From an uncultured Gammaproteobacteria bacterium (lineage in GTDB: Bacteria; Pseudomonadota; Gammaproteobacteria; UBA9214): DNA of 10,943 nucleotides. Both the position numbers and the translations under genes were made by a program. The stretch lies in assembly GCA_963827755.1 (NCBI GenBank), contig CAWHCQ010000033.1, forward strand, positions 1-10,943, read 5' to 3'. This document shows, one piece after another, positions 276 through 10,766 of the stretch. The notes beneath the pieces are model-generated. The model was given only the letters and a program-made list of their open reading frames with translations, had not been told where the DNA came from and ran no database searches. Position 1 is the stretch's first letter. Every line of letters begins with the position of its first letter.

Positions 276-1587
276 TCAGGCGGGTCTGCCGACACAGAAA
301 TACTCGAAGCCGAGGTCTTTCATGACGGCGGACTCGTATACGTTTCGCAGGTCAACAAAGACGTTATCGTTCATTAGCTTTTTAAGTTGAGTGAAGTCCA
401 GGCCGCGGTATTCGTTCCATTCGGTCATTAATACGATCGCATCGACCCCCTTGACCGCGTCATGGACATGGTCGAAGTATTTTACCTGCCCGGGAAGCAT
501 GTTCGCGGGCCTCTTTCATGCCCTGCGGGTCATGGGCGTGGATGACGGCGCCCTTGTCGACCAGGTTGGGGATGATCGCGAGTGACGGCGAGTCGCGCAT
601 GTCATCGGTTTCCGGCTTGAAGGTCAGGCCGAGGACGGCGATGGTCTTGCCGGACTCGCTGCCGCCGAGGGCCTCGCGGATCTTCTTCACCATGCGCGCC
701 TTCTGGGCGGCATTCACCTCGACCGCTGCCTCGACGATCCGGCAGGATGCGCCGTGTTCCTGTGCAATCCGGATCAGGGCGGTGGTGTCCTTGGGAAAGC
801 AGGAGCCGCCGTAGCCGGGGCCGGGGTGCAGAAACTTGCTGCCGATGCGCTTGTCCATGCCCATGCCCCTGGCCACGGCATGTACATCGGCACCCACGTG
901 TTCGCAGAGGTTCGCAATCTCGTTGATGAAACTGATCTTGGTGGCCAGGAAGGCGTTGGAGGCATATTTGACCAGTTCGGCACTTTCCAGGTTGGTGACG
1001 AGGATTGGCGCTTCTATCAGGTTGATCGGACGGTAGAGCTCGCGCAGCAGTTTTTCCGCCTGTTCACTTTCCACGCCAAGCACCACGCGGTCGGGGCGCA
1101 TGAAATCACTGATGGCCGCGCCTTCGCGCAGGAACTCCGGGTTGGAGGCCACGTCGAAATCCGCAGCCGGGTTGGTCTCCCTGATAATGCGCTCAACCTG
1201 CCGGGCGGTACCGACCGGCACCGTGGACTTGTCGACGATCACGGTGTAGCCGCTGAGGTGGGCGGCAATCTGCCGGGCCGCCTCGTAGACATAGACCAGG
1301 TCGGCATGGCCGTCACCGCGGCGGGTCGGTGTGCCGACGGCGATGAACACCAGGTCGGCGGCACCGACTGCCGGGTCATACTCGGTCGTAAATTGCAGGC
1401 GGCCGGCGGCGACGTTGCGGGCGACCAGGTCATCGAGGCCGGGTTCGTAGATCGGGATCTTGCCGGCGTTGAGCTGGTCGATCTTGTTTTGGTCGACGTC
1501 GATGCAGGTGACGGTGGCGCCGAATTCTGCGAAGCAGGCGCCGGAGACGAGGCCGACGTAGCCGGAGCCGATCATTACTACGTTCAT
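276..1587 (-). CDS. ugd: UDP-glucose 6-dehydrogenase; one apparent +1 frameshift near 508-510 joins ORFs 460-1587 and 276-500
   Basis: Rossmann motif GSGYVG, FIAVGTP, KSTVPVGT, SNPEFLREG, catalytic GYGGSCFPKD, LGLTFKPETDDMR. The C-terminal MTEW...VDLRN block continues in the neighbouring frame. Removing one base in gcccgcg restores EAANMLPGQ, so a sequencing error is likely. Confidence 0.95.
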
Positions 1588-1639
1588 GGTTTGTTATCCA
1601 TATCTTAAAGTTTGTGAAACGTTAAAAAGACCTTTAATG

Positions 1640-1832
1640 GCCACGGAATCCACGGAAGAACACGGAAAAATTTTAATTGCAAAAAAATCCTGATTTATCC
1701 CCTCTCCCGGCCCTCTCCTGGTCTATACACCCGGTGTGCATGCAAATGTTGTTTTATCTTTTCGTGTTCTTCCGTGGATTCCGTGGCTAAAAGGTTGTTG
1801 ATTTTTCCGTGAATTCCGTGTGTTTCCGTGGC
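1640..1832. mobile_element. Composite CACGGAA-triplet element, copy 1 (MITE/REP-like, no cargo)
   Basis: Forward arm gccacggaatccacggaagaacacggaaaa (1640-1669), a core with ctctcc..tctatacacccg..gttgttttatc, an inverted arm at 1759-1787 and a second inverted arm at 1802-1832. Same architecture as 5042-5650. Mobility is inferred, not shown. Confidence 0.7.
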
Positions 1833-1856
1833 TATAATATTTTGTAATTCATATTG

Positions 1857-2117
1857 TTACATCTTATCGGCTTCAGTTAAATACATTAATGCGCCTCTCG
1901 TTTGTGCATCCTGACCGGGATTTTGCCTGCCTTCTTCGGTCAATGGCAGGTCTTTCCAGGCACCGGCAAGCCGGGCTATGGATTCGGGCCATTCGCTGGC
2001 CAGTTCAGCCTTGATCAGGCGGGCTACCCAGTCGCTCTGTGACAGGTGTTCTGACTTTGCTGCAGCTGAGAGCTTTTTCTCGATTTCGTCTTCCAGGTCT
2101 ATTGTTACTTGCCTCAT
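1857..2117 (-). CDS. CopG/ribbon-helix-helix family protein, probable antitoxin without an adjacent toxin
   Basis: MRQVTIDLEDEIEKKLSAAAKSEHLSQSDWVARLI is an RHH pattern, followed by a WPESIARLAGAW tail; RBS GAGGTG upstream. The paralogous copy (~3224-3247) reads DAKREAL-stop, so the C-terminus here is probably extended by a 1-bp insertion. Confidence 0.8.
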   Translation of the reverse strand: MRQVTIDLEDEIEKKLSAAAKSEHLSQSDWVARLIKAELASEWPESIARLAGAWKDLPLTEEGRQNPGQDAQTRGALMYLTEADKM

Positions 2118-2241
2118 ATTTCACACCTCATCTGGACAGATATATTTGTAGTTGCCGGGCTGCCATTATCCTTGATTGTGGTATCGGCAGGGTTGGTTTG
2201 AAGTGTTCTGCTAAATTCGGGACCGGGTTAAGCAAGACATC

Positions 2242-2279
2242 TTGAAATGTACACGGTATGTACATACACTTGAACCATG
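2242..2279 (+). promoter_or_regulatory. sigma70-type promoter with TGTACA-N5-TGTACA operator, copy 1
   Basis: TTGAAA (2242-2247), 17-bp spacer tgtacacggtatgtaca, TACACT (2265-2270), and ATG 6 nt later with no RBS. Confidence 0.75.
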
Positions 2280-2309
2280 AAGCCTGAATGGGGCCCGGGA
2301 AAGGCTGCC
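2277..2309 (+). pseudogene. 11-codon remnant of a BrnT-like toxin N-terminus
   Basis: MKPEWGPGKAA aligns with MEYEWDPGRAV at 2517 and sits behind the same promoter; similarity then stops. Confidence 0.65.
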
Positions 2310-2370
2310 ATTCCAGTGATCACATAGTGTTGAGCGGTACATGGATACGAAATTTCATAACAACACTAAC

Positions 2371-2397
2371 GTCATACCCGCGAAGACGGGTATCCAG
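2371..2397 (+). repeat. Single arm of a GTCAT(T/A)CCCGCG..GCGGG(A/T)ATCCAG-type palindromic repeat
   Basis: gtcatacccgcgaagacgggtatccag with stem atacccg/cgggtat. Resembles the widespread dRS3/RPE-like palindrome (from recall); only one copy in the window. Confidence 0.55.
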
Positions 2398-2481
2398 TAG
2401 GTCACTGATTAGCAGGGGCACAATAATTCCTGGATTATTCGCTGCGCTCACCCTTCCGAGCAGCGGATAAAGTAGAAGACC

Positions 2482-2519
2482 TTGAAATGTACACAAAATG
2501 TACATACACTTGGGCCATG
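2482..2519 (+). promoter_or_regulatory. sigma70-type promoter with TGTACA-N5-TGTACA operator, copy 2 (brnT promoter)
   Basis: TTGAAA-tgtacacaaaatgtaca-TACACT-tgggcc-ATG, exactly 240 bp after copy 1. Confidence 0.8.
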
Positions 2520-3038
2520 GAGTACGAATGGGACCCAGGGAGGGCTGTCGAGAATCTGCGAAAACACAACGTAGATTTCGCTGATGCGGTTATCGCCCTT
2601 GAAGATGAAAATGCGCTTACGATCGAAGATCCCGATCACAAGGAGCGACGTTTCAAGACGCTGGGGATGGGTCCTTCTCTGAATATCCTGTTTGTGGTTC
2701 ATTGCGAACGCTCAGAGAACTGCATGATCAACGGAAGTGGGGAGCAGTATCGCTCATTTATTCATGTCGACAAGATCGTCCGTGCCATTGTGGGTGCCGC
2801 TGACGATCTGTGCCCTCCCGGCTTGTATAACGTAGTGGAGCACAACATGACGGTCGATGAGGTAGCCAGAGAGGTGCGCGATTTGTACCCGCAACTGGAG
2901 AGTATTCACGTAAATTATAATATTCGGATGAAAGATACACGCACACAGCTTCCCTGTCGCATATTCGATTATGTACCCTTGCCAAGCCACTCGCTACATG
3001 AGGAACTCCGAGTATTCAAGGAGAGCTTCTCATTCTGA
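2517..3038 (+). CDS. Chimeric ORF: C-terminally truncated BrnT-family toxin (2517-~2723) fused in frame to the C-terminal part of an NAD-dependent epimerase/dehydratase (~2724-3038)
   Basis: MEYEWD..K/R..NLRKH.VDF.DA..EERF/ERRF..LG..ILFVVH.ER is BrnT-like but lacks the terminal IRIISAR motif. INGSGEQYRSFIHVDKI...GLYNV matches the GxGxQxRxFxHVxD region of extended SDRs. Confidence 0.8.
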   Translation: MEYEWDPGRAVENLRKHNVDFADAVIALEDENALTIEDPDHKERRFKTLGMGPSLNILFVVHCERSENCMINGSGEQYRSFIHVDKIVRAIVGAADDLCPPGLYNVVEHNMTVDEVAREVRDLYPQLESIHVNYNIRMKDTRTQLPCRIFDYVPLPSHSLHEELRVFKESFSF

Positions 3039-3092
3039 GCAAACAAACCAGCTTGTATTAAAATCAGCCTCCTTGCCTGATTGACTTGAAGA

Positions 3093-3169
3093 CTCTCTCA
3101 TAAGATCCACGCCCACCGGGAGAGGTGATGTTGTTTTATCTTTTCGTGTTCTTGAGTGGATTCCGTGGC
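3093..3169. repeat. Partial CACGGAA-triplet element, copy 2 (core plus one inverted arm)
   Basis: ctctctc..gatcc..gggagag core, atgttgttttatc, then ttttcgtgttcttgagtggattccgtggc (3141-3169; 3 mismatches to 1759-1787). Confidence 0.8.
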
Positions 3170-3394
3170 TGTATTTTACTGTAATTCATATTGTTACATC
3201 CTTTTGGCTTCAGTTAAACACATTAAAGCGCCTCTCGTTTTGCATCCGGACAGATATATTTGCAGTTGCCGGGCTGCCATTATCCTTGATTGTGGTATCG
3301 GCAGGGTTGGTTTGAAGTGTTCTGATAAATTCTGACAACGGATCAGGCAGCACACCTTTCAATGTACACGAAATGTACATACACTTGGGCCATG
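3128..3394 (+). repeat. Internal duplication, copy 2, with the CopG gene almost entirely deleted
   Basis: Matches 1746-2279 except for loss of one CACGGAA arm and of 222 bp at catccggac (3243-3251). Confidence 0.9.
3357..3394 (+). promoter_or_regulatory. Promoter/operator copy 3, directly in front of brnA
   Basis: TTTCAA-tgtacacgaaatgtaca-TACACT-tgggcc-ATG; the -35 is altered relative to copies 1 and 2. Confidence 0.7.
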
Positions 3395-3640
3395 AGTGAA
3401 GATTTTAGCAAAGCCAAACGAGGCCCGGTTATTAAGCCCGATCCAAACAAGGTGAGAATTACTATCCGTCTGGATGCGGACATCATCGAGCATTTCAAGA
3501 AGATCGTGCATAAGTCTGGTGGCGGTAATTATCAAACGTTGATCAATGATGCCCTGAGAGAACAAATCAACGCACATGATAAAGGCCTGGAAAAAGCCCT
3601 CCGAAAAGTAATCCGGGAAGAACTCAAGAAAACAGGGTGA
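3392..3640 (+). CDS. brnA: BrnA antitoxin family protein
   Basis: DFSKAKRG..K.RITIRLD.DIIE.FK...GG.YQTLIN.ALR is the BrnA signature. Confidence 0.88.
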   Translation: MSEDFSKAKRGPVIKPDPNKVRITIRLDADIIEHFKKIVHKSGGGNYQTLINDALREQINAHDKGLEKALRKVIREELKKTG

Positions 3641-3728
3641 GAGGTAATCATGTTGGATTTACGAATATGAACAACGCGTAGTTTATATAGTATACTGGCG
3701 TCAGGAATCACAAATCAGGTAAATCGTC

Positions 3729-3938
3729 ATGGCAACACCAGAAGAAATCTTAAAAGAAGCAATTTCTCTTCGCCCTCTTGATCAGGCAAAACTGGTCGAT
3801 CGATTAATCGCTTGCCTGGATGCGCCTGATCCTGAGCTGGATAAAGTTTGGGCAGAAGAAGCAGAATCAAGACTAGATGCTTTTAAAAACGGAGAATTAA
3901 AGTCCGTTACATTGGAAAACGTATTGTCGAAAGTATAA
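3729..3938 (+). CDS. Addiction-module antitoxin component (TIGR02574-like)
   Basis: A.SL.P.DQA.LVD.L..LD.PD..LD..W..EAE.RL.A...GEL..V pattern, immediately followed by a ParE/RelE-like start. Confidence 0.85.
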   Translation: MATPEEILKEAISLRPLDQAKLVDRLIACLDAPDPELDKVWAEEAESRLDAFKNGELKSVTLENVLSKV

Positions 3939-4060
3939 ATGAGAATCGAATTTCTGGATGAGGCCCAATTGATCGAGTTAGACTGAGGCTGTCGAATACT
4001 ACAATAATGAAGTAAAAGGGCTGGGAGAAACCTTCTTACAGGAAGTGCTACATGCAATTG
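3939..4060 (+). pseudogene. RelE/ParE-family toxin, N-terminal ~40 codons only
   Basis: MRIEFLDEAQLIEL, then after a +1 shift TEAVEYYNNEVKGLGETFLQEVLHAI; this is a typical ParE-like N-terminus that breaks off at aattg (4056-4060). Confidence 0.8.
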
Positions 4061-4112
4061 GAACCTCGCGGAGCAGAGAAAACCGTTAAGGAAGATTGAA
4101 CCCCTGGAGTAG
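4056..4112 (+). pseudogene. C-terminal 18 codons of a DUF4160-family protein
   Basis: NWNLAEQRKPLRKIEPLE-stop is the characteristic DUF4160 ending and lies 4 nt before a DUF2442 gene, its usual partner. Confidence 0.8.
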
Positions 4113-4116
4113 ATCG

Positions 4117-4356
4117 ATGGTCCCGAAACTGAAAGAAGCAAAATACGTCAAGGCCTACACGCTGTGGCTGAGATTCGAGGACGGCTCCGAGGGTGAGGTG
4201 GACCTTGAATCGGAGTTGTGGGGGGAAGTCTTCGAGACGATCAAAGACCAGGAGGAGTTCAAGGCGTTTCGCCTCAATGCAGAACTCAACACCATCACCT
4301 GGCCTAATGGCGCCGACTTTGCCCCGGAATTTTTGTATCAGTCCATCTGCGCATGA
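4117..4356 (+). CDS. DUF2442 domain protein (DhiA-like antitoxin)
   Basis: Y.LWLRFEDGSEGEVDL...L.GEVFE.....F......TITWPNGADFAPEFLY motif; GGAG RBS upstream of ATG 4117. Confidence 0.88.
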   Translation: MVPKLKEAKYVKAYTLWLRFEDGSEGEVDLESELWGEVFETIKDQEEFKAFRLNAELNTITWPNGADFAPEFLYQSICA

Positions 4357-4488
4357 CGCAGCTGTTATGCGCTGATTATCATAATCGTTTGCAGCGGATT
4401 AAATGTATCGGAATGAGCGTTCACGCTCGAGCAGACAAGTTTTCACCGCGGGCCGGAAGATACAATCAGGCATATTAAAGGGCCACGG

Positions 4489-4713
4489 TCAGTCTTTGGA
4501 AAAATACGTATCCAGCTTATCAAGTAACGCCAGACCCTTTTCCAGATCACCCTTTGCCGCTAATGCGCGAAAACGCACCTCACTATCAAATTCAGCAAGT
4601 GCCTGGGTTGAGAGTTCCTCAACCAGCTTGTTTACACTCACATGCCGATGTTGTGCTAACGCTTTCAAACGGCTGTGTTTGTCGTCAGGTATCCGAATGG
4701 TCAACGTTGCCAT
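4489..4713 (-). CDS. RHH antitoxin (often annotated HicB-family), partner of the PIN toxin
   Basis: MATLTIRIPDDKHSRLKALA....SVNKL.EE RHH motif; starts 1 nt after the PIN stop, with a GAGG RBS. Confidence 0.85.
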   Translation of the reverse strand: MATLTIRIPDDKHSRLKALAQHRHVSVNKLVEELSTQALAEFDSEVRFRALAAKGDLEKGLALLDKLDTYFSKD

Positions 4714-4714
4714 A

Positions 4715-5036
4715 TTATTTACCTCTCAATAATCTTTCAGGTTTTACTATGGATAGACTTGGAAAATTTAATTCGGCATTTTGCAAATCATCAACATTGT
4801 TGGTAACAATATGCGTAGCATTCCCTGCCAGTGCCAGCTCGATCAAGAAATTATCTCCTTCATCAACTATGTTTGGGCGCCATAAATAGTAAATTGGCAC
4901 CCAATGACATATCCCATAAAAAGCATTGAGTAATTCCCTTACTTCCCCGCTTGTCAGCGGGCATACGTCCTGTATCCGCTGCCTGTTACTTACATCCTCA
5001 TACTCCATAAACAAGGCATTACTAATCAATGGGTTA
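4715..5036 (-). pseudogene. PIN-domain toxin (TIGR00305-like), 5'-truncated
   Basis: PLISNALFMEYEDV...WRPN..DEGDNFLIELALAGNATHIVT.N..D motifs are present. The N-terminal DTNV catalytic segment is absent, and the ORF start MFFRGFRGH is simply the translated repeat arm. Confidence 0.85.
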
Positions 5037-5221
5037 TAATGGCCACGGAATCCACGGAAGAACACGGAAAAATTTTAATTGCTAAAAAAATCCTTATTAA
5101 TTCTCTCTCCCGATCTATACACCCGACGGAAAGGGAAAGTTGTTTTATCAGCTCTTCCCCTGATTGAGTGGGTAACACATCAATTTTGACGTGACATATT
5201 CCTTCTAATAACAAGGTCGTT

Positions 5222-5528
5222 GGCCAAATGAATTTGGCCCTACAGTAGGGTCGAATTCATTCGACCAGCGGTGTGTCCCATAGCGCCCTGTAGGGTCGAA
5301 TTCATTCGACCAGCGGTGTTTCATCGTCATCACTCATCCAAAGGTGGCGACCGCGGGTAAACGTGGTGATGCAATAGACTTGATGGTGCAGGCAATGACA
5401 CCTCCTGCGCAATGCGTCGTAGGCCGGTTGGCCGAATGAATTCGGCCCTACAAATGCGACACAGGACATGGTGACCTCCTTGTCTCCAGTGGCAATAATG
5501 GCTGTTGGCCGAATGAATTCGGCCCTAC
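5222..5528. repeat. Cluster of five 22-bp GTAG REP hairpins (family B)
   Basis: gtagggtcgaattcattcgacc at 5245-5266 and 5290-5311; reverse copies at 5222-5243, 5430-5451 and 5507-5528. Stem changes are compensatory. Confidence 0.9.
5312..5469 (-). pseudogene. Remnant of a REP-associated tyrosine transposase (RAYT)
   Basis: AAGGAGG RBS and ATG TCC at 5469. After a REP, the frame reads YDALRRRCHCLHHQVYCITTFTRGRHL, resembling the RAYT N-terminal LRxGRxS...YxITTxTxxRxP. Flanked by GTAG REPs; no HUH core. Confidence 0.7.
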
Positions 5529-5686
5529 AACGGTAATCTACCCACCCGATCAGGGGAAGAGCCGTTTTATCTTTTCGTGTTCTTCCGTGGATTCCGTGGC
5601 TAAAGATTTTTTGAATTACCTTTCCGTGTATTTCCGTGTGCTTCCGTGGCTAATAAAGATGTACCCATCACAGCCACAGTCGACAC

Positions 5687-7438
5687 CTACGCCTTGTCGT
5701 CAGCATGGACCTCATCGCTGGTATCCAGGTACCCCTCGCGCAGCAGGTACAGCATGATCTCCTGCGCCACCTGCATCGGGCTCCGGCCGGTGGTGTCGAT
5801 GCGGATCTCGGGATGCTCGGGTACATCGTAGGGGTCGCTGATTCCCGTGAACTCGGGGATGATGCCCTCGCGCGCCTTGGCGTACAGGCCCTTGCGGTCG
5901 CGGGCCTCGCACTCCTCCAGCGGGGTCGCCACGTGGATCTCGATGTAGGCGCCGTATTGCTCGATGTTTTCCCGCACTTCCCGGCGCATGGCGGTATAGG
6001 GCGCGATCGGCGCGCAGATGGCGATGCCGGCATTCTTGGTGATTTCCGCGGCGACGAAGCCGATGCGGCGCACGTTGATATTGCGGTGCTCCCGGGAGAA
6101 ACCCAGTTCGCTGGACAGGTTCAGGCGGACCACGTCACCGTCGAGCAGGGTGACCGGGCGGCCGCCGTCTTCAATAAACTTGGCGTGAAGGATCTTGGCC
6201 AGCGTTGACTTGCCCGAGCCGGACAGGCCGGTGAAGAACAGGGTGAGACCTTTTTTGCTGCGCGGCGGGTAGACCGTGCGCAGGGAGGCGATGACTTCCG
6301 GATAGGAGAACCAGGCCGGCACCTCGTGGTTATTCTCAAGGGTGTGCTTCAGGTCCTTCTCGGTGAACCGCACGCCCTCTTCAACCTCCCCCGCGTCACT
6401 CTCGTCCGGCAGGAAAGACTCGCTGGCCGGCCGGTAGCAGAGCTCCCTGACCGGCACCATTTTGATCTTCAGCTCATCCTGGTAGCTCTCCATCAGCTCC
6501 TGTGCGGCATAGCGCGGATAATAACGCTGCTCGTCGTCGCGCACGCCCGGGGGCGCTGCATGCTCGGGGCCAACGATCATGTGGGAGCAGCCGTAGTTCT
6601 GGCGCATGATCGCATTCAGCAGCACCTCGCGCGGCCCGGCCATGCGCACGGCCGATGGCAGCAGCGACAGGACGGCCATGTTGTGCGGGTAGTGATGACG
6701 GATCGCCTGGTAGCAATGCACGCGGGCGTAATAATGCAGGTCACCCGGCTTGGTCATGCCCACCGAGGGATGCAGCAGGATATTGGCCTGTGCCTCCCTG
6801 GCCGCCTGCAGGGTGATCTCGCGGTGCAGGCGGTGCATGGGCTTGCAGGTATGGAAACCGACCACGTTCTGCCAGCCCATTTTCAGGAACAAATGCCGCA
6901 GTTCTTCGGGGGTGTCGCGCAGGGTGTCGAAATCGAAATGGGTGGGCAGCTGGACGCCGGTCAGGCGCCCGCCGATATAGGTATCGCATGTCTGTTCCAG
7001 CAGGTAGCGTACACCGGGATGTGCAGTCGAGGTCGTCCCGTAGATCTCGCTGGCCTCACGCTGCCTGTCCGGCTGCCACTTGTCCTCGACGGTCAGCACG
7101 GCCAGCATGAAACCCTCGCCATCACGCAGGGCCAGCTGCTGCCCGGGTTCGATTTTTTCGGCCTGCCTGGACGGCACATCCAGGGTAATCGGGATGGACC
7201 ACAGGGTCCCGTCGGGAAGGCGCATATTGTCGATGACGGACTCGTACGTTTCCCGGCACATGAAGCCGTCGAGCGGTGAGAAACCGCCATTCAGCAGCAG
7301 CTCGAGGTCACACAGCTGGCGCTGGTTCAGCGTGATGGAGAGGAAATCGGCGGATTCCGATTTAAGCGTCTCGGCCCGGTCCTCATCGATGAGCAAATTT
7401 AACAGTGTGCCGCCGTGCGGCGTGGTCAGATGGTCCAT
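5687..7438 (-). CDS. sat: Bifunctional sulfate adenylyltransferase / adenylylsulfate kinase (Sat-CysC fusion)
   Basis: PHGG, DLELLLNGGFSPL.GFM, MHRLH (HxxH), MAGPRE, NYGCSH.IVG..HA; kinase domain FFTGLSGSGKST, LLDGDVVR, RDRKGLYAKAR, FTGISDPY. Intact 583 aa. Confidence 0.95.
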   Translation of the reverse strand: MDHLTTPHGGTLLNLLIDEDRAETLKSESADFLSITLNQRQLCDLELLLNGGFSPLDGFMCRETYESVIDNMRLPDGTLWSIPITLDVPSRQAEKIEPGQQLALRDGEGFMLAVLTVEDKWQPDRQREASEIYGTTSTAHPGVRYLLEQTCDTYIGGRLTGVQLPTHFDFDTLRDTPEELRHLFLKMGWQNVVGFHTCKPMHRLHREITLQAAREAQANILLHPSVGMTKPGDLHYYARVHCYQAIRHHYPHNMAVLSLLPSAVRMAGPREVLLNAIMRQNYGCSHMIVGPEHAAPPGVRDDEQRYYPRYAAQELMESYQDELKIKMVPVRELCYRPASESFLPDESDAGEVEEGVRFTEKDLKHTLENNHEVPAWFSYPEVIASLRTVYPPRSKKGLTLFFTGLSGSGKSTLAKILHAKFIEDGGRPVTLLDGDVVRLNLSSELGFSREHRNINVRRIGFVAAEITKNAGIAICAPIAPYTAMRREVRENIEQYGAYIEIHVATPLEECEARDRKGLYAKAREGIIPEFTGISDPYDVPEHPEIRIDTTGRSPMQVAQEIMLYLLREGYLDTSDEVHADDKA

Positions 7439-7624: not shown

Positions 7625-7680
7625 TGTAGGAGCGAGCGCCAGCTCGCGAAGTTCTTCGCCAGCTGGCGCTGGCTCCTACA
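7625..7680. repeat. Intact REP doublet (REPIN-like), family A
   Basis: tgtaggagcgagcgccagctcgcgaa-gttc-ttcgccagctggcgctggctcctaca, with GTAG/CTAC tails on both ends. Confidence 0.9.
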
Positions 7681-7754: not shown

Positions 7755-9474
7755 CTATGAAGCCAGTATTTTATCCAGCTGTTTCAGCCCTGCCTCGATA
7801 TCCGCGCCCAGGTGGATTCTGAGCGCCCGGCGCCCGCGCTCGGCCAGCACCCCGAAATCGCCGCGCGCCTGGGCCGCCTCGACCGTGCCGAAGCTGTAGC
7901 CGTGTCCGGGCACCGGCAGGTCCGGCGCAGGGTCGGCTGTAATCTGCAGAAAGACGCCGTTGTTGGCGCCGCCCTTGTAGGCCTGCCCGGTCGAGTGCAG
8001 GAAGCGCGGGCCGAAACCAAGGCATACCGCCACCTTATACGTGTCCCGCAGCCGCAGCCGCAGCTGCTGCAACAGGGCATTGTGCGCATCATTGCGGGGT
8101 ATGTAGGCAAGCAGTGCCAGGTAGTCCCCCGCCACGGTGCGATCGAGGTGGGCGCGCAGGTAGTCCCCCAGCGTCGCCCCCTGCCCGGCCGCCTTGCGCA
8201 GGGCGGCGGCATTGGCGGCATCGGTGAACAGGGAACACGGTCTGTCCTCGATCAACGGGGTCTCTGCCGGCAGCTGGCCGCTGGCCTCGAAGGCCTCCAT
8301 CAGCTGGCGGGTGCCGATCTTGCTGGCCTCGACGTCGGGCTGGTCAAAGGGATTGATGCCGCATGATGGCACCGGCAACGGCCGTGGCGATCTCCCAGCG
8401 AAAGAACTCCTGGCCGAGGCCGTAGGCATCCTGCAGGGTGATGCGCACCACCGGGTGACCGGCGCTTTCCAGTTGCCCGATGGCGGCGGCCTGCCCGGCA
8501 TCCGAATCGGTTTCCAGGCGCAGGTAGACGAAGACGCGGTCGTCGCCATAGTCCTTCGGCGCGGCCAGCGGTTCGGCATCCACCGGGATGATGCTCTTGC
8601 CCTCCTTGCCCAGCGACTCGGCCAGCAGCTGTTCCAGCCAGGCGCCGAACGATGCCAGGCCGGGCGAGGCGACGATCATCAGCTTGTCACGCCCCAGCCC
8701 GGCCGCCGCGCCGAGGATGGTACCGAGCAGCAACGCCCGGATTGTCGGCGGGTGCATCGTTGACCGAGCAGGCCTGCACCATCTCGAGGGTAGTGTCGAG
8801 GTAGCGCTGGCAGGTCCACACCGAGCAATGCGGCCGGCACCAGGCCAAAATCGGACAGCACCGAGAAGCGCCCGCCAATCTGCGGCTTGCCGTAAAAGAT
8901 ATGGCGAAAGCCTTCGGCCTTTGCCGCCTTGTTCAAGACTCGAAACGGGGATCGGTAATCGCGACAAAATGCCCCGCGGCCCTGTCGGCGCCGACGGTAT
9001 CCACCACGCGCTGAAAGAAGTAGGCCTTGAGGATGTTCGGCTCCAGGGTGCTGCCGGACTTGCTGGCAACGATAAACAGCGTCTGCGCCAGGTCAACGGC
9101 ATCATCCACCGCCTTGACCTGGCCCGGGTCGGTTGAATCAAGCACCAGCAGGTCGGGGCAGTTGGCAGCGACACCGAAGGTATCGCGCAACACCTCCGGG
9201 CCCATGCTGGAACCGCCCATGCCCAGCAAGCACGACCTGGCGGAAACCGGCCGCGTTGATTTCACTGGCAAACGCGCGCAGTTCCTCCAGCGCATCCGGC
9301 TTTCACGGGGACGGCGGTCAACCAGTCAAGCCACTGCGCCTCATCGCGGTTGCTCCACAGCGAGGCATCCTTGTCCCAGAGACGCGCGGTGTTGTTGTGC
9401 TGCTGCCAGTCGGCCAGTGAGTTTTCAACGGCCGCCTGCAGGTCATTCGGTAATTTATAACTGATTGTGTTCAT
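7755..9474 (-). CDS. Glucose-6-phosphate isomerase-like protein (PGI half of Tal-Pgi type), split by several apparent frameshifts
   Basis: Collinear fragments: LWDKDASLW..WLDWL, LLGMGGSSMGPEV, LDSTDP, IVASKSGSTLEP, IGGRFSVLS.FGLVPAA, WLEQLLAESLGKEGK, GINPFDQPDVEASK, GFGPRFLHSTGQAYKGG, AQARGDF.VL.ERGRR. Start MNTISY at 9474. Confidence 0.88.
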
Positions 9475-9512
9475 TCGTTCTTTCCCGGCTTTGTTAAAAG
9501 CTATTTTTAATA

Positions 9513-9595
9513 GCCACGGAATCACACGGAAGAACACGGAAAAATAAACATCCATGAACTTTTATTTTTCCGTGTCCTTCCGTGGATTCCGTGGC
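9513..9595. repeat. CACGGAA-triplet element, copy 4 (compact hairpin)
   Basis: gccacggaatcacacggaagaacacggaaaaataaa / short loop / tttatttttccgtgtccttccgtggattccgtggc, a ~35-bp near-perfect stem. Confidence 0.9.
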
Positions 9596-9695
9596 CATAA
9601 TATTCATCAGGATAATGCAATACCAGCTTTCTGAGACATCATTGATTGATTGCTTATACATCATAAAGCCAGGCAATAATCCTGCATGAGACCCC

Positions 9696-9759
9696 ATCGC
9701 GCTTGAGAAGCGCTCCTACACCAGTCAATCAACTTGTAGGAGCGGATCTAATCCGCGAT
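9696..9759. repeat. REP pair, family A variant, tail-to-tail
   Basis: atcgcgcttgagaagcgctcctaca (9696-9720) and tgtaggagcggatctaatccgcgat (9735-9759), 7 bp past the glk stop. Confidence 0.8.
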
Positions 9760-9766
9760 AAACCAG

Positions 9767-10766
9767 CTAGTTTTCTGCTGCATCACCATTTGACTGCATG
9801 TACATCGCCGCGCCAAGCAGCGAGACGTCCGTATTGAGTACCACTCCGACAGGAATATCCTGCATCAGCGAGGACATGCGTCCCTTGGCACAGAAGGCCT
9901 CCATAAAGTCCGCCTGTTTCAGGCGCTCCAGTATTTTGGGGGCGATGCCCCCGGCAATATAAACCCCGCCGGTCGCCATCATTTTAAGCGCAAGGTTGCC
10001 GCTCTCGGCACCAAGAAACCGGACAAACATATCAAGCGCCTCGCGACAGGTGGCGTCCCTGTCCGCCATGGCCGCTGCTGAAATGGCCGCCGCCGTATCG
10101 CCCGAGCGCATTTCTTCAGCCAGCCATTCGGGACGGCTTGCAGTCAGCGGTACTGCAGCAGGAACTCATAAATGTTTACCAGCCCCATGCCGGATACCAC
10201 ACGCTCCCAGCTGACATGACCGTGTTGTTCTGCCAGCCAGTCTGAAAAAGCCATCTCTGTTTTGTTCACCGGCGCAAAGTCTGCGTGCCCGCCCTCGCAG
10301 GCAAACGGGATATAGCGCTGACCATCCCGACAGAGCCCTGCCTGGCCCAGGCCGGTACCCGCCGCGATCACGGCGGCATTACCCGTCAGCCGTCCGGCTT
10401 GCCTGCATTCAATATAAAGAAATCGTCTGCGCCCAGCACGGGGATACCCCAGGCAACCGCCTCGAGGTCGTTGATCAAGCCGACATTCGACCAGCCGTAG
10501 TCGGCCTTGATCTTTTCGGCGTCGATGACCCAGGGCAGGTTGGTCGTCTCGCAACGGCCGTCCCTGACCGGCCCGGCCACGCCGAAACAGGCAACATCGG
10601 CAACGCTATCGGGCCGGGAAAGATACTCATCCAGGACCGCATCAAACGAATCGAAATCACGGGAGCGGAACTCGTGCGCCAGGGCTATCTCCGGATACCC
10701 GGCTTGCAGGTCGACGATGCAGAGGCGGGTTTTTGTCCCGCCGATATCACCTGACAATACCTTCAA
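9767..10766 (-). CDS. glk: Glucokinase, with apparent frameshifts near 10390 and 10145
   Basis: GDIGGTKT, ACFGVAGPV, TNLPW.I, LINDLEA, IAAGTGLG, EGGHADFAP, SWERVVSG.GL, GGVYIAGGIAPKI, F..KGRM across three consecutive ORFs. Start uncertain (TTG 10766, or ATG 10783 with another indel). Confidence 0.92.

Follow-up and report, generated by a model that had tools for sequence, protein, structure and literature searches.

Toxin-antitoxin genes between ugd and sat/cysC

The window analysed here is the whole of contig C33 (CAWHCQ010000033.1; 10,943 bp), one of the 52 contigs of a metagenome-assembled genome (MAG; 2.85 Mb, 91.8% completeness, 5.4% contamination) of an uncultured sediment gammaproteobacterium. 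An island of toxin-antitoxin (TA) genes lies in it between ugd and sat/cysC, with a GC content of 0.42-0.50 (positions 1600-5650) versus 0.58-0.68 in the flanks. Window proteins were assigned to families by Pfam and NCBIfam profile scans. Five antitoxin open reading frames (ORFs) are open in 1857-5036: RHH1, a VapB-like ribbon-helix-helix (RHH) protein; BrnA; a PF09720 protein; a DUF2442 (DhiA-like) protein; and a second RHH protein, RHH2. The cognate toxin genes (vapC, brnT, a parE-like gene, DUF4160 and PIN_3) have each been cut by deletion to a stub or fragment, and the number of intact TA pairs in the window is zero.

Compared with intact relatives, the toxin lesions are true truncations: PIN_3 lacks its first 34 residues, BrnT its last 25, DUF4160 about 68 of 86 residues and ParE about half of its length. 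A preliminary description, made from the sequence alone, had reported five whole antitoxins with every cognate toxin broken, namely a toxin missing after the CopG gene, BrnT present as an 11-codon stub and a truncated fusion, a ParE-like gene of ~40 codons, 18 codons of DUF4160 and a PIN gene without its DTN N-terminus. All of these antitoxin calls and toxin lesions were reproduced: the first toxin can now be named VapC, the BrnT pieces were recovered both by profile scan and by comparison with a relative, and the ParE-like and DUF4160 remnants measure about 41-42 and 18 codons. The lesions had also been described as large deletions, which holds; at most four of them are independent events, as parE and DUF4160 share one deletion.

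RHH1 homologs were found in 10 of 301 class-level genomes. They are about 76 aa long and are followed, with a one-base overlap, by a VapC/PIN gene of 131-133 aa starting MY[ILVA]LDTN in all seven loci examined (6/6 when the unpublished genome G075 is left out), and it is from these neighbours that the lost toxin is named. In the window, the native part of RHH1 stops at ...RGAL and its last 9 codons consist of vapC codons 1-3 (MYL, 1878-1886) plus read-through; junction alignment showed that this MYL, in frame with RHH1, is all of vapC that precedes a CCACGGAA repeat element. The VapBC module is thus represented by its RHH/VapB protein and three codons of vapC. Genome G012 has the same vapC junction, with a degraded RHH1, and this common junction indicates that the loss of vapC is old. 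RHH1 is also damaged elsewhere, by a 1-nt deletion (frameshift) in G047, by halving in G015 and by deletion of its body in a second copy in the window.

For brnTA, ten loci were compared with a reference in G003 (contig C40), where an intact brnT (93 aa) overlaps brnA (82 aa) with 86-91% nucleotide identity to the window. Four of the ten matched at the nucleotide level, giving five orthologous loci including the reference. The toxin gene is intact in one of the five (G003): it carries a 2-nt insertion, possibly an assembly error, in G023 and a nonsense codon at position 76 in G045, retains only codons 1 to about 70 inside a broken katG in G017, and is present in the window as a fragment plus an exact ORF deletion. 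The antitoxin gene is intact in 4/4 orthologous loci that have it, and the window brnA has the length of its three orthologs. The brnT promoter with its TGTACA palindrome occurs in three copies in the window, before the 11-codon stub, before brnT codons 1-68 and before brnA. In the third copy the brnA ATG directly follows the brnT promoter and start site, the brnT ORF having been removed from ATG to ATG (junction compared with G003, G023 and G045). A full-length BrnA is therefore present, and a complete BrnT overlapping upstream of it is absent.

The G017 locus (L025; G017:C5, 4272-5028) consists of the brnT promoter and codons 1 to about 70, has no brnA, and replaces katG residues roughly 150-410. 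The brnT fragments of G017 and the window end within about 8 nt of each other, by coincidence or at a recombination-prone site in brnT. The idea that the brnT 5' fragment is a discrete mobile unit was dropped, because the left ends of the two copies differ in the promoter alignment. Measured against the same relatives, the brnT fragment (2517-2720) has a synonymous divergence (dS) of 0.07-0.40 and brnA (3392-3640) one of 0.64-1.06, a 2-4-fold difference, and the two pieces may have different histories. The epimerase-like piece fused to the fragment has no second copy in the MAG.

The PF09720 antitoxin gene is preceded by a promoter-like site (3668-3696). Its 70-aa relative in G026 is followed by a ParE-like toxin of at least 92 aa; in the window the antitoxin is complete and the full toxin (about 95 aa) is missing. 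The parE remnant is joined at about 4050-4060 to the tail of DUF4160, so that a single deletion fused parE' to 'DUF4160 and killed two toxins in one event. Homologs of the DUF2442 protein downstream were matched in 23 of 300 genomes. A DUF4160 ORF lies upstream of them in five of six loci (four full length, one N-terminally short; the sixth locus was cut too close), and the intact partners are 85-86 aa or longer and end ...NW.LA..RKPL.KI.PLE. No DUF4160 toxin of about 85 aa precedes DUF2442 in the window. The pair had been equated beforehand with DhiT/DhiA. This stands at the domain level, dhiTA being a DUF4160/DUF2442 domain pair with the toxin gene first in the excerpt used of PMC8198452 (this and the articles cited below are drawn on in part), and fails at the equivalog level, where the window protein scores 30.5 bits against the DhiA model NF048016 (cut-off 200). 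By this score the DUF2442 protein counts as a family relative and not as DhiA. Outside the genus, the nearest DUF2442 homolog (64% identity; L075, G130:C237, 1322-1785) lies behind a 57-aa DUF4160 ORF without the N-terminal part, possibly a further case, in an unrelated lineage, of a lesion that struck the toxin first.

At the syntenic spot next to sat in G048 (contig C11), an intact 141-aa PIN_3 gene is followed by RHH2 with 86% identity. In the window a CCACGGAA element has taken the place of the first 34 residues of PIN_3, including the aspartate of VVDTSVL, and of the region upstream, so that no PIN_3 toxin with its whole acidic active-site set stands before the RHH gene. Of the three species compared, G048 has PIN_3 intact, the window has it without its N-terminus and G023 has lost nearly all of it; RHH2 is intact in 3/3. 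A 368-nt metagenome contig from run X2 matches 4725-5038 with 1 difference and continues with 54 letters unlike the window, the change falling precisely where the PIN remnant meets the repeat. Its source may be a strain living alongside that has another junction or an intact PIN gene.

Modules with both genes dead also occur in the array, namely the second RHH1 copy, whose body is deleted, and the two brnT pieces without an adjacent brnA. The statement that antitoxins are always kept therefore depends partly on what was counted. Coordinates of all features are collected in Table 1.

Table 1. Genes, gene remnants and repeats in and around the TA island (window coordinates)
Feature	Position	Strand	Remarks
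ugd (UDP-glucose dehydrogenase)	460-1587	-	Pfam/NCBIfam scan
Left border: CCACGGAA palindromic element and half-element	1632-1849		arms 1640-1671 / 1756-1787; half-element 1796-1849
RHH1, VapB-like RHH antitoxin, 86 aa	1857-2117	-	VAPB_antitox E 0.0013, below cut-off
Intergenic repeat D3, copy 1	2129-2218		97% identical to copy 2 (3243-3332)
brnT promoter/operator copy 1 with 11-codon brnT stub	2224-2309	+	TTGAAA-17-TACACT over palindrome ATGTACA..TGTACAT; stub 2277-2309
135-nt repeat element terminating brnT stub	2301-2436		copies in G000:C9 and several G050 contigs; 2 copies in the MAG
brnT promoter copy 2	2464-2516	+
brnT codons 1-68	2517-2720	+	BrnT_toxin profile 1-64/77, E 1e-16
Epimerase-like C-terminal fragment, 104 codons	2724-3038	+	fused in frame to brnT 1-68; Epimerase profile 190-239/240, E 0.0013
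Second unit copy	3133-3391		CCACGGAA half-element; RHH1 3' end and vapC stub 3161-3240; D3 copy 2 3243-3332; promoter copy 3 3339-3391; together a copy of 1751-2276
brnT promoter copy 3	3339-3391	+	-35 altered to TTTCAA
brnA antitoxin, 82 aa, full length	3392-3640	+	BrnA_antitoxin (PF14384) E 2.2e-12
PF09720 (Unstab_antitox) antitoxin, 69 aa	3729-3938	+	profile 1-54/54
parE/relE-like toxin remnant, about 41-42 codons	3939 to about 4055	+	+1 frameshift near 3984
DUF4160 (DhiT-like) remnant, last 18 codons and stop	4056-4112	+	NWNLAEQRKPLRKIEPLE
DUF2442 (DhiA-like) antitoxin, 79 aa	4117-4356	+	E 3.6e-13, profile 2-68/72
RHH2 antitoxin (HicB/FitA-like RHH), 74 aa	4489-4713	-	downstream of PIN gene in its operon
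PIN_3 remnant, residues 35-141 of 141-aa ortholog	4715-5038	-	PIN_3 profile 32-114/115
Right border: CCACGGAA element split by MITE, and half-elements	5037-5660		arms 5042-5073 / 5569-5600; half-elements 5616-5660
Miniature inverted-repeat transposable element (MITE), 412 nt	5151-5562		24-nt terminal inverted repeats; inserted inside CCACGGAA element
sat/cysC (fused ATP-sulfurylase/APS (adenosine 5'-phosphosulfate) kinase)	5687-7438	-	Pfam/NCBIfam scan

Repeat elements, island borders and flanks

Several deletion breakpoints abut repeats: the vapC stub lies beside the half-element at 1796-1849, the PIN remnant ends exactly at 5037/5038, and the brnT stub ends at the 135-nt element. The unit at 1751-2307, made up of the CCACGGAA element, RHH1, D3 and the brnT promoter, is found again at 3133-3422, and in this second copy the RHH1 body (the equivalent of 1904-2128) is deleted. 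Near-full copies of the CCACGGAA arm number 28 in the MAG, and the family occurs in almost all genomes of the genus. In the window the CCACGGAA/TTCCGTGG palindromic family occupies 1637-1849, 3133-3186, 5037-5089, 5564-5660 and 9503-9612. The MITE contains internal hairpins resembling repetitive extragenic palindromic (REP) sequences, and five full copies of it (90-95% identity) are found in the MAG, on contigs C27, C4, C31, C21 and C9. An integron cassette array was considered and rejected: the longest ORF in 1600-5650 is 183 aa, leaving no room for an integrase, and the repeats are CCACGGAA palindromes that also occur in empty spacers (attC sites were not sought with a dedicated model).

Genes resembling glucose-6-phosphate isomerase and glucokinase are each spread over three frames, the stretches with split housekeeping genes being 7755-9555 and 9767-10766, and a frame break in ugd near 500 was confirmed against two relatives; the neighbouring housekeeping genes show about five frameshifts over 5.7 kb. 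These breaks are probably indel errors of an error-prone assembly, with real pseudogenes as the remaining option. Such errors matter for single-base lesions and not for the large toxin deletions. The C-terminal 72 residues of Ugd are 55-62% identical to relatives versus 89-90% for the rest of the protein. REP-like palindromes of the form TGTAGGAGC...GCTCCTACA lie at 1-26, 92-118, 213-240, 7625-7680 and 9696-9759, that is, at both contig ends and between genes, and gave 83 short matches on 23 contigs.

The same spot in related genomes

Searching with the sat protein located 21 loci, that of the closest relative (L047) having a sat 92% identical to the window's. Ten contain both sat and ugd, eight break off no more than 273 bp beyond sat, too soon to be informative, and one (L066) extends 8 kb without ugd. 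The sat-ugd spacer measures 148-1064 bp in nine of the ten loci and shows no island or TA homology apart from CCACGGAA elements (6/9). The remaining one, G023, has a 6.1-kb island in the gene order ugd-island-sat-pgi, syntenic with the window. At least 3.7 and 4.5 kb of TA genes, respectively, run to the contig ends in G048 and G015. Pfam annotation of these three islands covered 37 of 94 ORFs of at least 45 aa, longer and non-nested ORFs being chosen.

The G048 island holds four intact pairs (TumE with its neighbour, RHH/Doc, PIN_3/RHH2 and HigB/HigA) and an orphan PF09720 antitoxin with an 8-codon parE stub. The G015 island holds two intact pairs (RHH/Doc and MNT/HepT), a FitA-like RHH gene beside a PIN gene matching profile positions 17-116/120, an orphan helix-turn-helix (HTH) gene, and the same orphan PF09720 gene as G048, with its parE stub fused to half of RHH1. 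In G023, HigBA is intact and is accompanied by a large Fic protein, three orphan RHH genes, a truncated HepT, a DUF4160 tail and a remnant of DUF2442, cut by a MITE after about 8 codons. None of the four islands showed an intact TA toxin without its antitoxin, with the possible exception of a 348-aa Fic protein in G023, which is perhaps not a TA toxin. The spot is thus a variable interval between conserved genes that carries a cluster of TA genes alone, and related genomes show a dead toxin beside an intact antitoxin and, later, the loss of both.

Pairwise estimates of selection

The preliminary description had proposed dN/dS of each antitoxin against homologs as a check, with values near 1 in unexpressed antitoxins counting as neutral decay. 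Pairwise Nei-Gojobori estimates of dN/dS (omega) were 0.02-0.06 for BrnA and 0.15-0.17 for RHH2, in which the N-terminal 53 codons (the DNA-binding half) gave 0.05 and the C-terminal 21 codons 0.24 (0.07-1.30). For RHH1, the comparison of the window with G023 gave 0.53 (0.30-0.96). Among the dead fragments, BrnT codons 1-68 gave 0.07-0.18 and PIN 0.19. Since dead toxin fragments are as low in omega as antitoxins, a low value reflects time spent intact and is silent on upkeep after toxin loss. The estimates accordingly do not discriminate (BrnA and RHH2, 0.02-0.17; dead toxin fragments, 0.07-0.19), and the proposed reasoning from values near 1 is inapplicable to genomes this far apart.

Cognate toxins elsewhere, scans and public sequencing runs

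A search for intact cognate toxins in the same genome, likewise proposed at the outset, found no intact BrnT, DUF4160 or PIN_3 elsewhere in the MAG (92% complete), nor any other match to BrnA, DUF2442, DUF4160 or PIN_3. The only other BrnT match is a distant N-terminal fragment of 35 positions (G000:C40:95239-95343; profile 1-35/77), 39% identical to that of the window and with no BrnA match nearby. As far as the MAG shows, the orphans thus have no resident toxin to restrain. Toxin matches spanning the full profile (four ParE, one PIN and one HicA) are present elsewhere in the MAG, and an intact PF09720-ParE pair lies on contig C11, so that there has been no genome-wide purge of toxins.

A promoter scan called 7 sites in the window, versus 6.5 +/- 2.8 in shuffles, which is no enrichment; the sites noted are the brnT copies and the one before the PF09720 gene. 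PADLOC, Rfam and tRNA scans of the window returned nothing.

Among 23 public runs listed, the best share of the window's sampled words was 0.13. Four runs were aligned and no record crossed the whole stretch, depth being mostly on repeat elements. Short contigs from run X1, possibly the source sample, match 2071-2217, 2195-2344, 4473-4644 and 4717-5000 with 2-5 differences each, and the one over 2195-2344 bridges the brnT-stub junction. Contigs from RNA run X20 match 4132-4358 and parts of brnA with 90-96% likeness; their upstream parts misfit at 4057 and 3391, which indicates that they come from relatives and give no word on expression here.

Origin of the orphan antitoxins

The state of the islet is best explained, with good probability on the comparative sequence evidence, by ordinary two-step TA erosion under a lethality filter, that is, by survivor bias in a repeat-rich insertion and deletion hotspot. 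A type II TA islet would have been acquired horizontally into the ugd-sat/cysC intergenic spot and would now be at a late stage of this decay. Deletions have removed or truncated every toxin gene, several of them anchored at repeats flanking and within the island. Loss of an antitoxin beside a live toxin would be lethal, so that survivors would lose the toxin first or both genes together, and the intact antitoxin ORFs would be the residue of this filter and not a selected collection. The surviving antitoxins would now be neutral or nearly so, and the repeats would be the cause of the deletions. The preliminary description had offered two readings, survivor bias and a selected antitoxin library; the former gains from the variable spot, the intact relatives, the independent toxin lesions, the antitoxin losses and the breakpoints that abut repeats, and no positive evidence emerged for the latter. 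Among pseudogenised TA systems of Photorhabdus, the excerpt of PMC13617665 gives 185 with only the toxin affected, 186 with both genes and 8 with only the antitoxin. By the ratio of 185:8, five toxin losses out of five are expected and not surprising.

Several observations weigh against erosion as the explanation. All five antitoxin ORFs are open despite a frameshift-rich assembly (at the neighbouring frameshift rate, the chance that 1.2 kb stays open is about one in three); BrnA shows very strong constraint in the pairwise comparisons; the tidy excision of brnT with a promoter copy kept before brnA suggests that expression was kept for a reason; and the window, with no intact pair, is the most eroded of the four islands. 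The five open frames, and the promoter and start context that brnA retains after the exact excision, would also fit a selected antitoxin-only array, in which selection keeps the orphans either because they protect against plasmids and phages that bring in cognate-family toxins (anti-addiction or anti-TA immunity) or because they act as RHH transcription factors. This we consider unlikely. The -35 of the promoter copy before brnA is weakened, and the scan did not call this copy. RHH2 is intact in three of three species, with its PIN partner lost or truncated independently in two, and its DNA-binding half has an omega of 0.05; however, its native upstream region was lost with the 5' end of PIN, and the dead BrnT and PIN fragments have the same low omega. 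RHH1 fits selection poorly, with an omega of 0.53 against G023 and decay in G012, G047 and G015, and DUF2442 is destroyed in G023. Anti-addiction is established in principle, and relatives of BrnA were found both on plasmids (6 records, 41-52% identity) and on viral contigs (6 loci, 47-64%), which shows that mobile elements do carry cognate-family modules; yet the closest of these relatives are at most 64% identical, no PADLOC family was matched in the window, and the rest of the MAG holds no intact BrnT, DUF4160 or PIN_3. The strongest hints of selection are that brnT was cut out so cleanly and that RHH2 was kept more than once. A maintained antitoxin bank, in which at least brnA and RHH2 would be retained to disarm BrnT-, PIN- and DhiT-family toxins from plasmids, phages or abortive-infection systems, is given a small probability.

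It is similarly improbable that the contig joins strain variants or collapses repeats, so that some of the deletions or the three brnT-promoter copies did not stand on one molecule. The MAG has 5.4% contamination, and the contig that makes up the window is short, rich in repeats and marked by apparent indel errors in its housekeeping genes; no public run holds more than 0.13 of its sampled words, and the X2 contig diverges exactly at the PIN junction. On the other hand, the order ugd-island-sat-pgi is syntenic with G023, island modules are common to three other species at the same spot, the vapC junction is common to G012, and relatives assembled independently also have truncated toxins in these modules. 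The X1 contigs add matches to four segments of the window, one of them across the brnT-stub junction, although X1 is possibly the source sample itself. That the modules still function through a remnant or an unrecognised small ORF as toxin is highly improbable: the BrnT(1-68)-epimerase fusion (173 aa) and the PIN remnant (116 aa) are open reading frames, but BrnT lacks the last quarter of its domain (Pfam 1-64/77), PIN lacks its first conserved acidic residue (profile from position 32) and parE and DUF4160 are down to 42 and 18 codons, and losses of this kind in BrnT, PIN, ParE and DUF4160 folds would be expected to abolish activity.

Relation to known systems and significance

Decay of ccdO157 was reportedly described by Mine et al. 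in 2009, and anti-addiction is said to have been demonstrated by Saavedra De Bast et al. in 2008 for a complete chromosomal ccd system acting against plasmid ccd. The islet resembles orphan and anti-addiction antitoxins in that antitoxin genes stand in a chromosome without a working partner toxin, and differs from the anti-addiction case in that a complete ccd system is involved there and antitoxins known from sequence only are involved here. In Klebsiella, according to the part used of Horesh et al. 2020 (PMC7192599), orphan antitoxins are abundant and anti-addiction is raised only as a possibility. Decay of chromosomal TA systems is reviewed in PMC7167474.

The closest parallel to two-step erosion is provided by Photorhabdus, where, in the excerpt of Belot et al. 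2026 (PMC13617665), TA systems are clustered in small high-turnover spots, are often lost and decay in two steps, toxin first. Here too a cluster of TA genes alone occupies a small variable spot that is absent from most relatives, with repeats and mobile remnants around it, and toxins were pseudogenised first while antitoxins linger until both are lost. The present case differs in that all modules of the islet are at the toxin-dead stage at once, in that most of its lesions are not point mutations but deletions with short palindromic repeats or MITEs as their anchors, and in that it comes from an uncultured MAG and from sequence data. With BrnTA (PF04365/PF14384), DhiTA, PF09720-ParE/RelE, VapBC and PIN_3-RHH modules the islet shares the domain families, the stop/start overlaps seen in relatives and the gene order of known modules (toxin first in brnTA, dhiTA and the PIN_3-RHH2 pair); it differs from all of them in that only the antitoxin halves are complete in the window.

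The locus is a new, well-resolved example of an already known process. If the antitoxins did form a selected array, arrays of such orphans would pass on a protection against addictive mobile elements and a TA graveyard would be a heritable immunity locus; nothing here requires this. The locus also carries a caution, in that pairwise dN/dS cannot show upkeep of orphan antitoxins when adjacent dead toxin fragments score equally low. As the product of erosion under a lethality filter, it would offer a natural example of the death of a chromosomal TA islet that can be compared across four species at one spot, in a course that runs toxin first, through deletions that tend to anchor at short repeats, with antitoxins later, and it would extend to an uncultured lineage from the environment a pattern for which most examples to date are from enterobacteria.

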